DNA of 32,458 bases from Microgenomates group bacterium Gr01-1014_5 (GTDB taxonomy: Bacteria > Patescibacteriota > Microgenomatia > UBA8517 > UBA10165), in assembly GCA_007376395.1 (NCBI GenBank), contig VMGE01000002.1, positions 143,118 to 175,575 of the forward strand, read 5' to 3'. This document shows positions 24,937 to 30,664 of this stretch, piece after piece. Made by a program: the position numbers and the translations under genes. The notes under the pieces are model-generated. The model was not told the DNA's origin. It saw nothing but the letters and a program-made list of their open reading frames with translations, and searched no databases. Every line of letters begins with the position of its first letter. The first letter of the stretch is position 1.

Positions 24937-25024
24937 AAATCTTTGATTGGCGGAACGTAATCCCGTTTTGCGGGAAACGTTCCAGCAACGTTTAAATTGT
25001 GTAACAATTTATTACGTTGCGGTG
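24937..25024 (-). repeat. Orphan copy of the tRNA-Ser trailer element
   Basis: 88 bp identical to the reverse complement of 28438-28525. Confidence 0.95.
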
Positions 25025-25044
25025 TCTGTTTGAAAATATCCGAA

Positions 25045-25893
25045 TCAGAACGGAAACGGTGATTTCAGGTTTGTCTTTGGCAGCAAATTCTTTTTTCTGA
25101 TAATTGTAATATTTCTATCTAGAGAGATTTCTTTATGACCTAGTGGTTTAGCGTATGGATTGCTTTCGTCTATCGCTATTTCACAATCAAGTTGTCGCAA
25201 TGCCTCAATTAACATCTTGTGTTCAATATCAGAAAAAGAAGTAATGATAATAATTCCATCTTTTCCAACTCTTTGAATGGCCTGCTGGAATATTTTTGCC
25301 CAAGTTTGCTCATTATTAGAAATTTGCTCATGTCGGATTACAACCACATCGACTTCCTTTGGGATTTGTTGATACTGGTCTAAGTTGGTCGCATCGCCAA
25401 CAATAAATTCATAATTATGGGGCAAAACATATTTAGTAACTCTCTCTGAGAAATCTGGGATTGAGTAACCACTGACAGCTCTTGAAATATCCTTCTCGCT
25501 AATGTCTACACCAATTAACTTTACATTGTTGCTACTACTGCCGAGAGTTTCTCCGCCGAAAAAAGCACTCAATACTATTCCTTCCTCACACTCACCACAG
25601 CCAAGATCGAGTATTGTAGTTTGCCTTTCTTGCGGCGGTTTATATCCGGCTCTTTCAACTGTTGAAACGAGCATATTCCAAAAGCGTTGTATATTATCCC
25701 CAGTTTCTCTTGCACCTTCTAAAACTTTTAAATATCTTTCTCGTTCCTCTGGCGTTTCAAATGTTGATAAGGTGTAATCATCAACAAGGTTAGCCCCTTT
25801 TTCTAGTGGTAAGATTCTGGTTGATAATTTAATTTTATCTTTCAGGTCCGTTTCCGGCTGTACTGTAGGTGGTTTTTCAAATGGTGTTTCCAT
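25045..25893 (-). CDS. Class I SAM-dependent methyltransferase
   Basis: ILDLGCG, LIGVDIS, FIVGDA. Confidence 0.82.
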   Translation of the reverse strand: METPFEKPPTVQPETDLKDKIKLSTRILPLEKGANLVDDYTLSTFETPEERERYLKVLEGARETGDNIQRFWNMLVSTVERAGYKPPQERQTTILDLGCGECEEGIVLSAFFGGETLGSSSNNVKLIGVDISEKDISRAVSGYSIPDFSERVTKYVLPHNYEFIVGDATNLDQYQQIPKEVDVVVIRHEQISNNEQTWAKIFQQAIQRVGKDGIIIITSFSDIEHKMLIEALRQLDCEIAIDESNPYAKPLGHKEISLDRNITIIRKKNLLPKTNLKSPFPF

Positions 25894-25897
25894 AATT

Positions 25898-25951
25898 TTA
25901 TTTCATAAAATCATCAATAGTAATTCCCAAACCCTTGGCAATTTTCATCAT
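25898..25951 (-). pseudogene. C-terminal fragment of an XRE-family HTH regulator
   Basis: MMKIAKGLGITIDDFMK* resembles the final helices of XRE proteins. Confidence 0.55.
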
Positions 25952-25959
25952 TTCTCAAT

Positions 25960-26014
25960 TGGCGGCAAGTACAATACTATACCTGCCTGCAAGATGCAGG
26001 GTTGTATCTTGCGG
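25960..26014 (-). repeat. Sequence-divergent double-hairpin trailer downstream of tRNA-Ser(CGA)
   Basis: CC-GCAAGAT..ATCTTGC-A-GGCAGGTA..TACTTGCC-GCCA. Confidence 0.7.
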
Positions 26015-26073
26015 AGGAGGTGAGATTTGACAATTTGTGCAAACAAATTGGTTGTTCACCCACGCCGCGTAAG

Positions 26074-26159
26074 CGGAGGGTAGAGGATTCGAACCTCTGC
26101 GGGTCTTGCGACCCAACTGTTTTCGAAACAATCGCCTTAGACCACTTGGCTAACCCTCC
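26074..26159 (-). tRNA. tRNA-Ser(CGA)
   Basis: Acceptor GGAGGGT/ACCCTCC-G; anticodon arm ATTGT-TTCGAAA-ACAGT; long variable arm; GGTTCGAATCC. Confidence 0.95.
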
Positions 26160-26598
26160 CAATCCCTTTTTCTAAAACTTCTTTTTCACTCTTGAAAGAT
26201 AATTTTTTTAATGCTTCTTCTTCCAGCACCCAAACCGCTTCTTCTATTTCGTCCTCCCATTGCTTTTCTATTTTTGTGTCTTTGCCGTCCGTCGATTTCA
26301 TTAAATAAAAAACCACCACTTTAAATATTTTCTCTGTGTCCTGGACGAAAAAATACTTAATATCTTCTATCTTTTCCAATATCTGAGCACGCACTCCTGT
26401 TTCTTCAAAAATTTCCCGGATTGCTGTATCGGCTGACTTTTCGCCTCGGTCAATTTTTCCTTTTGGCAATTGCCAGCGTTTTGTCCCTTTGGGTTTAATT
26501 AACAACCACTCCCGTAAGTTGTGATTTTTGCGGAAAACTGCTCCTCCAGCGGAAAAGTGGCGAATTACTTTAATTTGGCTTTCTTTTCTTTTTGCCAT
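26137..26598 (-). CDS. NUDIX hydrolase (Ap4A hydrolase-like)
   Basis: SAGG, WQLPKG and an intact Nudix box GKIDRGEKSADTAIREIFEETGV. Confidence 0.92.
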   Translation of the reverse strand: MAKRKESQIKVIRHFSAGGAVFRKNHNLREWLLIKPKGTKRWQLPKGKIDRGEKSADTAIREIFEETGVRAQILEKIEDIKYFFVQDTEKIFKVVVFYLMKSTDGKDTKIEKQWEDEIEEAVWVLEEEALKKLSFKSEKEVLEKGIGRVSQVV

Positions 26599-27005
26599 TG
26601 ACGCAAGACATCGTTTGCCTGACCTAAAACTTTCTGTTCACGGGCAAGCTCTAATTTGCGGCGAGCGCTGCTATATTTAAGCCACGATCCGTGAAGTGTG
26701 GCTGGGAATTCAGGTTTGCCTGTTCCTTGGCGCATTAAATAAACAATAACCCGCGCGTCTTGGGATTGCCCATTGTTTTTAATAGTCACATTCATCCGCC
26801 CAGCCTCTTCAAGAACAGTAATGCGCAAACCAGCACTTTCTTTTAAGTAACGGATTGCAGCGCTAACCGAGGATTCACCTCGCCTAACGTCGCTTTTAGG
26901 AATTTCTAGGCTATTATTGTCCTTAGATTTAACCAAAAACCACTCGTTCTCCCCGCTTCTCTCCCTAAAAGCTAATGCTCCAGCAATTAATTTATCAGTG
27001 ATCAT
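26565..27005 (-). CDS. Degenerate NUDIX-fold protein
   Basis: PKSDVRRGESSVSAAIRYLKESAGL; start moved to ATG 27005 to avoid the tRNA. Confidence 0.75.
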   Translation of the reverse strand: MITDKLIAGALAFRERSGENEWFLVKSKDNNSLEIPKSDVRRGESSVSAAIRYLKESAGLRITVLEEAGRMNVTIKNNGQSQDARVIVYLMRQGTGKPEFPATLHGSWLKYSSARRKLELAREQKVLGQANDVLRQWQKEKKAKLK

Positions 27006-29140: not shown

Positions 29141-29179
29141 CCTCTTTTATGGCGAATAGCCTCTTTTATGGCAAGTAAC
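29123..29179 (+). repeat. 3 x 19-bp tandem repeat spanning the antitoxin stop
   Basis: CTCTTTTATGGCGAGTAGC / CTCTTTTATGGCGAATAGC / CTCTTTTATGGCAAGTAAC. Confidence 0.92.
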
Positions 29180-29186
29180 CTAATTA

Positions 29187-29582
29187 ATGGTGAATAACAC
29201 AAGTTATCTTCTTGATACTAATATTCTCCTTTGGTGGGTTGATGATAATAAAAGATTAAAAAGGTCGATTTATAAAGTAATACAAGACAAAAATAATCAA
29301 ATCTTAGTAAGCGTGGTCAGCGCTATAGAAATTAGTATCAAAAACAATTTAGGAAAACTGCCTTTAAAAACTAGTCTTGAGAGAATATTTGAAGGTTCTG
29401 AGTTTGAAGTGTTGGATATTGGCCTTAGCCATGCACTAGAGCTCAATCGGCTACCTCTCCATTCTGGACACAGAGATCCGTTTGACAGAGTTTTAATCTC
29501 CCAAGCCAAAGCCGAAAAATTAACTTTAATTACTTCTGACGAAAAAATTTGGAAATACAAACTTTCTATATTAAAAGCTTAA
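29187..29582 (+). CDS. vapC: VapC/PIN-domain toxin
   Basis: LLDTNILLW, SAIEI, HRDPFDRVLISQA, LITSD. Confidence 0.93.
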   Translation: MVNNTSYLLDTNILLWWVDDNKRLKRSIYKVIQDKNNQILVSVVSAIEISIKNNLGKLPLKTSLERIFEGSEFEVLDIGLSHALELNRLPLHSGHRDPFDRVLISQAKAEKLTLITSDEKIWKYKLSILKA

Positions 29583-29586
29583 AGTG

Positions 29587-30288
29587 TTAGCGAGCCAGAG
29601 TCAGGCACCAAACGCGTTTGAATCCCACCTTTTTTAACACTTTTACCGCCTCAAGCATTGTTGCGCCGGTTGTCCAAACATCGTCGAACAAAACAATTGT
29701 CGAGAGATTAGAGATTGGAGAATTAGAGATTAGAGTAAAAACGTTTTGGACATTTTCCTTCCTTTCTTTTCCTTTTAGTCCGACTTGCTGTTTTGCCATC
29801 TTTGAGCGCACTAATAGATTTGTCATTTGCCAACCCATAAGCTGAGCCAATATTTTACCCACCTCTTCCACATGGTTAAAACCGCGCCAGTTGTTTCGTG
29901 TCCAGTGAAGCGGGATAGGCACCAAGACCAATTTGTCTGTCCATTTTGGAGAGGCTGGGGTGCTTCTTTTTATATTCTTGAGTGTGCCGGACGCAGGGAC
30001 GGCTAGGCTTAAACCTACATCTGTAACGTATTTGTATTTTAGCTTCAAAATAAGTTCCCTGGGAGCTTTCTCGTACGCCCAAATTGAAGTGAGTCCGTCC
30101 GGGGAAAATCTTTTTCCGCACTGTACGTGTATCGCTCCGTCAACCGAGGAACGCTCGCACCTAGGGCATGATTGAGGAAAATACAGCTTTGAAGACTGGA
30201 TACAAGAAACACAAAAATAAGTTCCAAACTTGCCGCACCCGGCACATTTTTTAGGAAAAAGAAAGTCTAAAAGACTCACAATTCCCAT
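29587..30288 (-). CDS. comF: ComF family competence protein (Zn finger plus PRTase-like)
   Basis: CAGC/CVSC/CPRC, VPIPLH, RGFN, LFDDVWTTGAT, TLAR. Confidence 0.92.
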   Translation of the reverse strand: MGIVSLLDFLFPKKCAGCGKFGTYFCVSCIQSSKLYFPQSCPRCERSSVDGAIHVQCGKRFSPDGLTSIWAYEKAPRELILKLKYKYVTDVGLSLAVPASGTLKNIKRSTPASPKWTDKLVLVPIPLHWTRNNWRGFNHVEEVGKILAQLMGWQMTNLLVRSKMAKQQVGLKGKERKENVQNVFTLISNSPISNLSTIVLFDDVWTTGATMLEAVKVLKKVGFKRVWCLTLAR

Positions 30289-30293
30289 TGTAG

Positions 30294-30320
30294 CCCCACT
30301 CCACTTCGTTTCGTTAGGGG
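30294..30320. repeat. Palindrome overlapping the GIY-YIG stop
   Basis: CCCC-ACTCCACTTCGTTTCGTTA-GGGG. Confidence 0.5.
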
Positions 30321-30559
30321 TATTTACTGATTAGACGTTTGTTGCGGAAAGCAAAACCAGAGCTAGATTTTAGGTATTTTTCAAAGGAAATTGCTTTTGG
30401 CTTGGACTTAAAAGCACAATAGAACACCAACTCTTTATTAGTTGTCCTCGTATGAACAACCAGCCCTTTAAAATGTGTTTGTATTCGCTGTTTTAGGTTT
30501 GAAGAAAAGCCTGTGTAATAAGTGCCGTCTTTAAGTCCGAGGATGTAAACATAGTACAC
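30314..30559 (-). CDS. Second small stand-alone GIY-YIG endonuclease
   Basis: YYVYIL, YYTGFSSNLKQRIQTH, LVFY, A..FEKYLKSSSG. Confidence 0.92.
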   Translation of the reverse strand: MYYVYILGLKDGTYYTGFSSNLKQRIQTHFKGLVVHTRTTNKELVFYCAFKSKPKAISFEKYLKSSSGFAFRNKRLISKYP

Positions 30560-30582
30560 ACTTTATCATAGCAATAAAAGCA

Positions 30583-30664
30583 TCCCACTTCGTCAAGACT
30601 TCGCGGGACACCACGCTGTTTTACTTCTTGGTGCTGCGCACCGCGAAGCTTTAGCGGAGTGGTG
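30583..30664. repeat. Inverted pair of family A palindromes between tmRNA and GIY-YIG
   Basis: 30583-30608 (TCCCGC-GAA-GT-CTTG-AC-GAA-GTGGGA on -) and 30639-30664 (CACCGC-GAA-GC-TTTA-GC-GGA-GTGGTG on +). Confidence 0.8.

Follow-up and report, generated by a model that had tools for sequence, protein, structure and literature searches.

Small GIY-YIG genes with structured leaders at stable-RNA genes of Patescibacteria are probable mobile cassettes

The stretch of DNA analysed here (the window; 32,458 nt, positions 143,118-175,575 of the forward strand of contig VMGE01000002.1, assembly GCA_007376395.1) comes from Microgenomates group bacterium Gr01-1014_5 (Patescibacteriota; Microgenomatia; UBA8517; UBA10165) and was studied in detail from 24,937 to 30,664, where two short GIY-YIG genes (gene 1 and gene 2) lie among tRNA genes and beside the transfer-messenger RNA (tmRNA) gene. 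The two genes, members of a multi-copy family of minimal GIY-YIG proteins (UPF0213 / bacterial Slx1-like), are probably compact mobile, homing-type selfish cassettes that parasitise stable-RNA transcription units. The cassette is a clade-specific structured leader with an open reading frame (ORF) of about 80-95 codons, and it lies after a tRNA or tmRNA gene, between two tRNA genes or inside a 23S rRNA gene, always on the strand of the RNA gene. A first-pass annotation of the window had described hairpin elements at all of its stable-RNA genes, with GIY-YIG genes just 3' of two of them, and had proposed that these proteins recognise and spread the hairpins; the observation was partly confirmed and the interpretation partly supported.

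Stable-RNA genes were called by ARAGORN and Rfam, which agreed, and ORF families were assigned by Pfam, with a cut-off of 22.6 bits for the GIY-YIG domain (PF01541). The structure of flanks was scored as a z value against 200 shuffles. The comparison covered the genome that holds the window (G000; 930 kb, 16 contigs, 43 tRNAs and one tmRNA), 20 genomes of the same family or order, 61 genomes sampled over the phylum, and 80 loci of the gene 1 clade from 80 named bins. The nearest named relative of G000 among the compared records was a Candidatus Blackburnbacteria bin (Microgenomates, Patescibacteria). A gene was counted as near a tRNA or tmRNA gene when it lay within 300 nt.

Gene 1 (28049..28309, plus strand) encodes 86 amino acids (aa) from an ATG, or 93 aa from a GTG at 28028, and gene 2 (30314..30559, minus strand) encodes 81 aa. 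Both proteins consist of a single PF01541 domain (57.3 bits, E 2e-15, and 50.9 bits, E 2e-13, respectively) that covers nearly the whole 81-93 aa. Matches to the PDB entries 1zg2 (E 8.7e-7, obtained with gene 1) and 1ywl (E 3e-4), UPF0213 proteins of the E. coli YhbQ type, indicated the UPF0213 / bacterial Slx1-like minimal type, and most copies of the family are 76-120 aa long. Across 30 sequences, Y5, Y16, G18, R26, E62 and K66 were invariant and H30 was conserved in at least 90%; they include the Tyr of GIY, the Tyr of YIG, the Gly, and the Arg and Glu known as catalytic from the I-TevI and UvrC literature. A conserved Asn was absent from the invariant or nearly invariant columns of these 30 sequences, the homologous column not having been mapped to UvrC or I-TevI, and passages of an earlier survey describe the bacterial Slx1-like group as lacking a conserved C-terminal Asn (PMC1564403). 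In addition, the ratio of non-synonymous to synonymous substitution rates (dN/dS) between the tmRNA-linked gene 2 of G000 and its orthologue in G001 was 0.074, indicating purifying selection. From the catalytic-type residues and the dN/dS value, the small GIY-YIG genes are predicted to be functional; decayed copies with internal stops or reduced to fragments also occur. G000 contains 12 small GIY-YIG ORFs, one fragment and one 446-aa UvrC-like protein, with 13 matches above the PF01541 cut-off. In the phylum sample, 45 of 61 genomes carried a strong small copy and 16 did not, and copy number ranged from 0 to 12 among genomes of similar size, the highest count being reached in a genome of 0.7 Mb.

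The small GIY-YIG genes are strongly associated with stable-RNA genes. Gene 1 starts 156 nt past tRNA-Ser(GCT) (27804..27892, plus strand) and gene 2 starts 100 nt past the tmRNA (30660..31023, minus strand; 149 bits), each co-oriented with that RNA and each, as the first-pass annotation had stated, 3' of a structured element. In G000, 7 of 13 small copies were near a tRNA or tmRNA gene, all within 101 nt; five of the seven lie immediately 5' of a tRNA, and three of these draw their stop codon from tRNA positions 8-10. Among the 20 relatives, 34 of 54 small copies met the distance limit (32 were within 150 nt), all 34 on the strand of the RNA, and many were located between two tRNAs. In the phylum sample, the best hit per genome was near a tRNA in 5 of 27 cases and the other copies of six multi-copy genomes in 18 of 39, again all co-oriented; two additional copies were linked to tmRNA. 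The gene 1 clade gave 57 of 80 loci near a tRNA or tmRNA, all co-oriented, with tRNA-Ser upstream in 35, tRNA-Asp in 6 and tmRNA in 4. Taken over all sets, 121 of 121 near copies were co-oriented with their RNA gene. By comparison, 1.66% of random co-oriented 250-nt segments of G000 qualified, and of 972 proxy genes without a GIY-YIG domain 61 were near an RNA gene and 40 were both near and co-oriented. Chance or an annotation artefact as the cause of the association was ruled out by these two nulls, and the predicted enrichment at tRNA ends across Patescibacteria was found to be strong and phylum-wide. The most frequent layout genome-wide, in which the gene directly precedes a tRNA or has tRNAs on both sides and its stop codon falls within the tRNA, points to a cassette living on tRNA transcription rather than to a system of the repetitive extragenic palindromic (REP) type. 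Moreover, the 37 RNA-linked proteins placed in the tree occupy 30 distinct RNA contexts, indicating that they do not descend from one inherited locus.

Two genomes, G000 and G058 (locus L112), also have a small GIY-YIG gene inside a 23S rRNA gene and on its strand. A stem of 14 perfect pairs, or about 20 when folded as a duplex, closes around the copy in G000 (C14:13266-13535; L058:1501-1770). In the candidate phyla radiation, rRNA genes are reported to hold intervening sequences and insertions with endonuclease genes, mostly for LAGLIDADG enzymes; the two 23S cassettes resemble them in position and in having an enclosing stem of at least 10-14 perfect pairs. A group I intron was considered for the 23S insertion and rejected, no model matching the cassette, which sets it apart from those insertions. 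Elsewhere in the same rRNA operon (G000 C14:14500-14735; L058:2735-2970), tRNA-Ala(tgc) is directly followed by a truncated GIY-YIG fragment and then by a pseudo-tRNA (Rfam, 29.7 bits) in which a short perfect palindrome takes the place of the anticodon arm. A near-identical palindrome lies in a tRNA-Gly(gcc) fragment upstream of another GIY-YIG gene (G000 C1:63171-63230). The spacer between tRNA-Ile(gat) and tRNA-Ala(tgc) in this operon (C14:14736-16349) is about 1.6 kb, far above the usual length.

Filled and empty sites were found in close relatives, as the first-pass annotation had suggested looking for. In G016 the order is tRNA-Leu(taa), 46 nt, the GIY-YIG gene, 93 nt and tRNA-Pro(tgg), whereas in G017, a genome of the same genus, only 21 nt separate tRNA-Leu(taa) from tRNA-Pro(tgg). 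Similarly, a gene lies between tRNA-Phe and tRNA-Gly(gcc) in G006 and G010, and the same tRNAs are 19 nt apart in G017. The 3' flank of tmRNA was polymorphic as well: of 22 loci, 20 had enough downstream sequence, and 4 of these 20 carried the gene (3 intact, 1 broken). In G007, G013, G019 and G020 the tmRNA is directly followed by an ORF of similar size on the same strand (read as comF-like, not scanned with Pfam), and gene 2 of the window is inserted into such a tmRNA-comF arrangement. The inserted unit is only about 300-450 nt.

Putative scars of insertion were found as well. Among 22 pairs of a gene and the tRNA downstream of it, seven carried, 20-100 nt ahead of the gene, a copy of a tRNA 5' part that beat every non-cognate control; six were perfect 15-28-nt copies of the same tRNA and one was an imperfect 16-nt copy of another tRNA. 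On inspection, two further duplications of a tRNA 5' part were evident. GC-rich palindromes interrupt the copies or come after them. At L023 a 60-nt direct repeat lies on either side of the gene, and L034 shows the mirror image, with an 18-nt copy of a tRNA 3' end after the gene. The 3' ends of cassettes often contain 2-5 tandem copies of the terminal 13-25-nt motif (L043, L038, L052, L123, L141), which may record repeated rounds of cutting and repair at the end of the element, or slippage there.

The proteins, too, show signs of movement between sites and genomes. Close protein relatives adjoin different tRNAs, in clades supported at 98-99 by the Shimodaira-Hasegawa-like approximate likelihood ratio test (SH-aLRT). 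The protein of gene 1 shares 67-72% identity with proteins of five genomes in which SmpB is only 39-46% identical to that of G000, and this excess of similarity over SmpB between classes was read as horizontal transfer. Proteins 54-71% identical to that of gene 1 also occur in bins labelled Brocadiales, Humimicrobiaceae, Gammaproteobacteria and Balneolaceae (L165, L166, L167, L236 and others), at least L165 and L167 having the same tRNA-Ser and module upstream. These labels from outside Patescibacteria may reflect mislabelled bins, contamination or transfer across phyla.

The leader of gene 1 belongs to a conserved two-hairpin module. In the window, an element of about 80 nt lies 3' of tRNA-Ser(GGA) (28359..28443, plus strand) and of tRNA-Ser(TGA) (28599..28683, plus strand), a variant lies 3' of tRNA-Ser(GCT), and one inverted orphan has no adjoining tRNA. 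The copies at 28438-28525 and, inverted, at 24937-25024 are 100% identical over 88 nt; the others share 73 nt (28680-28752) and 48 nt (27887-27934). A covariance model of this type I module (R1) placed the solo copies after tRNA-Ser(GGA) at 28440..28518 (82 bits) and after tRNA-Ser(TGA) at 28680..28758 (77.9 bits), the gene-linked copy, which begins at the tRNA discriminator base and varies in hairpin 2, at 27889..27969 (78.7 bits, z -3.10), all on the plus strand, and the orphan at 24944..25022 on the minus strand (82 bits), between the stop of a methyltransferase gene and the start of dnaG. The fold after tRNA-Ser(GGA) scored z -5.07, none of 200 shuffles being equally stable. In the gene 1 clade, the spacer from tRNA-Ser or tRNA-Asp to the gene is this same module, which starts at the discriminator base and, in most loci, stops 0-15 nt before the ATG. 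An alignment of 24 type I sequences contained 29 pairs, of which 18 showed compensatory double changes; G-U pairs filled 10 cells and C-A 4, a bias that favours an RNA structure on the sense strand. No hairpin module matched an Rfam family above its gathering score, and the sub-threshold matches overlie only the tRNAs themselves.

Module type follows the phylogeny of the proteins, in agreement with what the first-pass annotation had anticipated. Sister subclades at other tRNAs or at tmRNA have a different leader made of small palindromes, and the gene 2 clade has a third type (III), which follows tmRNA in G000, G001, G004 and G009 and tRNA-Ala in G019. In the window, the type III module is the tmRNA trailer (30560..30659, minus strand; two hairpins and a U-run, z -2.40), which also forms the leader of gene 2. 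The covariance model of module I matched 4 of the 61 phylum genomes, all four with GIY-YIG genes, and none of the 16 genomes without a strong small GIY-YIG hit; in this sample the module was confined to genomes with the genes. In G057 and G056 the module lies directly upstream of a GIY-YIG gene. Within G000 it occurs in six places, four in the window and two as solo copies on contig 5; one of the six is gene-linked and two are away from any tRNA end. A REP-like spread of this module through the whole genome was ruled out by this count.

Structured flanks are not confined to the two GIY-YIG loci. Significant structure was found at five of the six stable-RNA genes of the window, and not at all of them as had been claimed; tRNA-Arg(GCG) (27024..27096, minus strand) was the exception, with a marginal leader (z -1.94) and an unstructured trailer (z +1.06). 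In the leader of tRNA-Ser(GCT) (27740..27803, plus strand; z -4.55) a hairpin comes after an imperfect mimic of the tRNA 5' end. The leader of tRNA-Ser(TGA) (28538..28598, plus strand; z -4.14) is one long hairpin with a 5' arm that resembles the 5' end of the tRNA; as no GIY-YIG gene lies upstream, it is a solo leader. tRNA-Ser(CGA) (26073..26159, minus strand) has a strongly structured trailer of 113 nt (25960-26072, minus strand; z -4.64). Upstream of tRNA-Ser(GGA), an 18-nt exact direct repeat (28291-28308 and 28355-28372, plus strand), made of 4 nt and the first 14 nt of the tRNA, brackets a 63-nt hairpin leader (z -2.99) and supplies the end of gene 1 as well as the tRNA start; the last codons and the stop of gene 1 therefore fall in a copy of the tRNA-Ser 5' end. 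The further claim that each element repeats the terminus of its own RNA held for tRNA-Ser genes, with this exact repeat, the imperfect mimics in the other two leaders and 5 nt of the tRNA-Ser 3' end retained on the orphan module. It failed for tmRNA, tRNA-Arg and tRNA-Ser(CGA), where matches were no better than controls. Over all 44 stable-RNA genes of G000 a handful beat the controls, mostly those adjoining GIY-YIG genes, and terminus repeats as a general feature of the stable-RNA genes of this genome were ruled out by that scan. Outside the window, at G000 C7:7670-7910, lies a cluster of several short matches, some to the tRNA-Ser leader hairpin and some to the palindromes found upstream of the tRNA-Arg(tct)-linked GIY-YIG gene; it may be another nest of small palindromes.

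Between the module and the start codon of gene 1 lies a copy (27965..28048, plus strand; z -2.72) of a second structured repeat, 84 nt long and ending in a T-run and AT(G), where loose contig ends were seen at 27965 and 28015-28052. G000 contains six copies that are 84-94% alike, the other five being at C7:39908-39991, C7:68541-68585, C10:17836-17919, C1:124341-124423 and C1:144299-144366. The repeat abuts an ORF start at three sites, namely gene 1, an S19-like ORF and a glucose-6-phosphate-dehydrogenase-like ORF, and it resembles a small mobile 5' leader. Similar sequence is present in the spacer between tmRNA and the GIY-YIG gene of G003.

Three observations suggest that the gene is expressed by read-through and its message released through tRNA processing: there is no room for a promoter or ribosome-binding site, co-orientation is complete, and the covariation is of the RNA type. 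We propose that the ORF, without a promoter or Shine-Dalgarno sequence of its own, would be transcribed by read-through of the RNA gene, that processing of the tRNA by RNase Z and RNase P would release the mRNA, and that the hairpin module would then serve as a protected 5' end. The encoded protein, a putative nuclease, would cut cassette-free modules or stable-RNA genes, or DNA close to them, and the cassette would be copied in during recombinational repair, a homing-type process that may act within and between genomes. Imprecise events could leave partial tRNA duplications, tandem end repeats, solo modules or leaders, and decayed copies.

By analogy, the genes of the window would work most like free-standing GIY-YIG homing genes of the phage Seg family, minus the DNA-binding domain. 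The segB gene is positioned in a phage tRNA cluster, and Seg enzymes have about 200 aa or more, with a separate DNA-binding domain. In both cases a lone GIY-YIG gene lies between conserved genes, including tRNA genes, and is present or absent between relatives; the mechanism proposed here, in which an allele without the gene is cut and then repaired, is that by which Seg genes spread. In contrast to Seg enzymes, the cassettes have only the roughly 85-aa catalytic domain of the Slx1-like branch, reside in cellular genomes with up to 12 per 0.7-0.9 Mb, and carry a clade-conserved structured leader and partial duplications of the target tRNA. Passages of published work describe the Seg family as free-standing GIY-YIG homing endonucleases (PMC2988022) and link SegB to tRNA in T4-like phages (PMC13096335). 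With the UPF0213 / Slx1-like proteins, the cassettes share the sequence family and the stand-alone minimal domain. The parts of the earlier survey that deal with this group treat it as mainly vertically inherited repair or RNA-metabolism proteins, and its tRNA passages mention neither linkage to tRNA genes nor hairpin modules nor mobility (PMC1564403). A link of small GIY-YIG/UPF0213 genes to tRNA genes, to Patescibacteria or to REP-like repeats was not found in the literature searched, mostly outside subscription journals and with supplements excluded.

Several points weigh against mobile homing-type cassettes. The paralogues of G000, 27-49% identical and spread across the tree, are old, and strong purifying selection acts on them, which fits domesticated genes equally well. 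The protein is a catalytic domain of about 85 aa without the DNA-binding domain of known GIY-YIG homing enzymes, which leaves the recognition of sites unexplained. In several clades of the family the context is stable but contains no RNA gene, and 54 of the 125 copies have neither an RNA neighbour nor enclosing repeats. The genomes compared are kin and not independent, so that binomial figures overstate the significance of the association. Finally, the tree had hinted at independent capture of the tmRNA site by different lineages, but the approximately unbiased (AU) test left a single clade possible (p 0.41); as one origin of the tmRNA-linked copies was not rejected, the claim of repeated targeting of tmRNA was dropped.

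The main conservative rival is a domesticated role at heavily transcribed RNA genes. Here, the genes would be housekeeping paralogues that serve the cell at stable-RNA genes, acting for example on R-loops or stalled forks, as Slx1 does at rDNA, or on tRNA precursors; their position would reflect co-regulation in tRNA operons and the scars would reflect the plasticity of tRNA loci. The age of the paralogues, their purifying selection and invariant residues, and the complete co-orientation with tight packing among tRNAs would all be expected of such genes, and NUDIX genes are packed likewise into a tRNA operon of the window. Moreover, Dunin-Horkawicz et al. (2006) reported, in the passages concerned, a fusion of a prokaryotic Slx1-like domain to a TrmH-type tRNA methyltransferase and suggested an RNA-related role and mainly vertical descent (PMC1564403). 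However, a housekeeping function is difficult to reconcile with a copy number that varies so widely at similar genome size and falls short of a strong copy in over a quarter of the phylum sample (the 16 genomes noted above), with presence and absence within a genus, with broken copies, with insertions inside 23S rRNA, and with a protein that is far more alike across classes than SmpB. We therefore consider domestication unlikely. Remnants of integrase-borne islands are much less probable still. Integrase-mediated islands occupy the 3' ends of tRNA and tmRNA genes, and the GIY-YIG genes, the methyltransferase and a toxin-antitoxin pair could be leftover cargo, with the repeats as decayed attachment sites. 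The cassettes share with such islands the insertion at tRNA and tmRNA genes and short repeats of the end of the RNA gene, e.g. the 5 nt of tRNA-Ser on the orphan module, 17 nt of the tmRNA 3' end that recur about 70 nt downstream in G006, and the 3' end of tRNA-Gly(tcc) repeated 77 nt downstream in G000. In contrast to islands, the inserted unit is only about 0.3 kb, most of the genes lie 5' of a tRNA or between tRNAs, in spacers of a few hundred bases, two lie inside 23S rRNA, and the scar is usually a duplicated tRNA 5' part rather than the 3' end. A Pfam scan of 30 window ORFs, of which 6 matched nothing, found no integrase or transposase family, in line with the first-pass annotation.

That annotation had favoured a system resembling REP-associated tyrosine transposases (RAYTs) and their REPs, in which the folded modules, recognised by the GIY-YIG protein, are non-autonomous elements that it mobilises in trans; tRNA ends would be preferred sites, and pairs of modules would trap genes. 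We regard this as rather improbable, if less so than domestication. In RAYT systems, as parts of the published accounts describe them, the nuclease gene is flanked by inverted palindromic REPs, solo copies are dispersed, and the nuclease type matches the repeat family (PMC3337134, PMC3116915). Comparable features were observed here. Solo copies of module I outnumber the gene-linked one in G000, and protein clade predicts module type. Of 125 genes, 17 are enclosed by a perfect inverted repeat of at least 10 bp (99th percentile of the null, 9), such enclosure being frequent at copies not linked to RNA genes, and pairing is better between cognate than between non-cognate flanks (p 4e-5). G042 has 19 occurrences of a 13-nt arm motif, against 0 for the reversed control, and three of them flank two of its GIY-YIG genes. 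In G017, which has no small GIY-YIG genes, 13% and 9% of tRNA flanks are structured against 32% and 27% in G000, a comparison of one genome with one, and in the window the methyltransferase lies between a tRNA-Ser and the orphan module. On the other hand, neither GIY-YIG gene of the window is flanked by inverted copies of a dispersed palindromic repeat, the copy numbers of six and 19 are low where hundreds would be expected, and no target-site duplications were seen at the ten repeat-enclosed loci inspected. The excess of G-U over C-A pairs indicates an RNA structure, the genes are multi-copy and horizontally transferred whereas RAYTs are single-copy and vertical, and the Phd-VapC and methyltransferase genes are tied to modules by position alone. 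The cassettes also differ from RAYT-REP systems in having a GIY-YIG and not an HUH/Y1 fold and in their tie to stable-RNA genes.

A bolder extension can be put forward only tentatively. The UPF0213 / Slx1-like mini-nucleases, an old family without an assigned function, and their clade-specific modules might form a new class of prokaryotic mobile element, in which a nuclease recognising tRNA-like or hairpin structure, and not a long sequence, mobilises its own cassette of about 0.3 kb together with solo modules, as a fold-independent analogue of RAYT-REP. Its mRNA would arise through tRNA processing, and it would reshape tRNA, tmRNA and rRNA loci throughout the candidate phyla radiation and, where transferred, outside it. 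Recognition of structure, the core of this REP-like extension, would fit the kinship with Slx1.

If the genes are indeed selfish cassettes, a very widespread family of tiny nucleases, functionless since structural genomics solved two of its members, would gain a biological role in targeting stable RNA. Such cassettes would account for much of the tRNA-gene debris of reduced genomes, such as tRNA fragments, hairpins and split tRNA clusters, and pseudo-tRNA pieces and palindromes next to these genes should be annotated with caution, as scars and not as genes. They would also offer a testable case of a protein gene that lacks its own expression signals and depends instead on the transcription and processing of tRNA. 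The module is a conserved structured element with strong covariation outside any Rfam family, and a minimal nuclease that finds tRNA-like or hairpin structures would be of interest to enzymologists and tool builders.

The perfect 88-nt inverted repeats (24937-25024 and 28438-28525) bound a segment of 3.4 kb, which may have been inverted between them or may owe its orientation to a choice in assembly. Public contigs of the same population stop at every module copy, so that the order and orientation of this segment are without an independent check. Missing cover in a related strain, which affected both GIY-YIG genes and the Phd-VapC pair, was dropped as evidence, as no well-supported contig joins across.

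The SAM-dependent methyltransferase (25045..25893, minus strand; PF13847, E 2.8e-12) had been placed just downstream of an RNA trailer, as had the Phd/YefM antitoxin and PIN (VapC-type) toxin genes (28907..29582, plus strand; PF02604, E 2e-10, and PF01850, E 4e-16). The latter pair does start 155 nt after the module of tRNA-Ser(TGA), but the methyltransferase is better described as lying between tRNA-Ser(CGA) and the orphan module. Cargo capture by these sites would be suggested by proximity only. Two co-oriented NUDIX genes (26137..27029, minus strand; PF00293, E 8e-19 and 5e-5) fill the interval between tRNA-Arg(GCG) and tRNA-Ser(CGA); the first starts 5 nt inside the 3' end of tRNA-Arg and the second ends 23 nt inside the 5' end of tRNA-Ser(CGA). 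In the relative G005 just 106 nt separate the matching tRNAs. NUDIX genes squeezed between tRNAs of the same strand indicate that other genes, too, ride in tRNA operons here. An ORF without a family match (27157-27708), the ComF-like phosphoribosyltransferase gene next to gene 2 (29587..30288) and the SmpB gene (31057-31488) are all on the minus strand, and another 20 large ORFs of the window either are housekeeping genes of ordinary kinds or lack a Pfam match. Within the toxin-antitoxin pair, three tandem 19-nt repeats (29123-29196) cover the phd stop and the sequence ahead of the vapC start, and the last codons of the antitoxin gene are duplicated.

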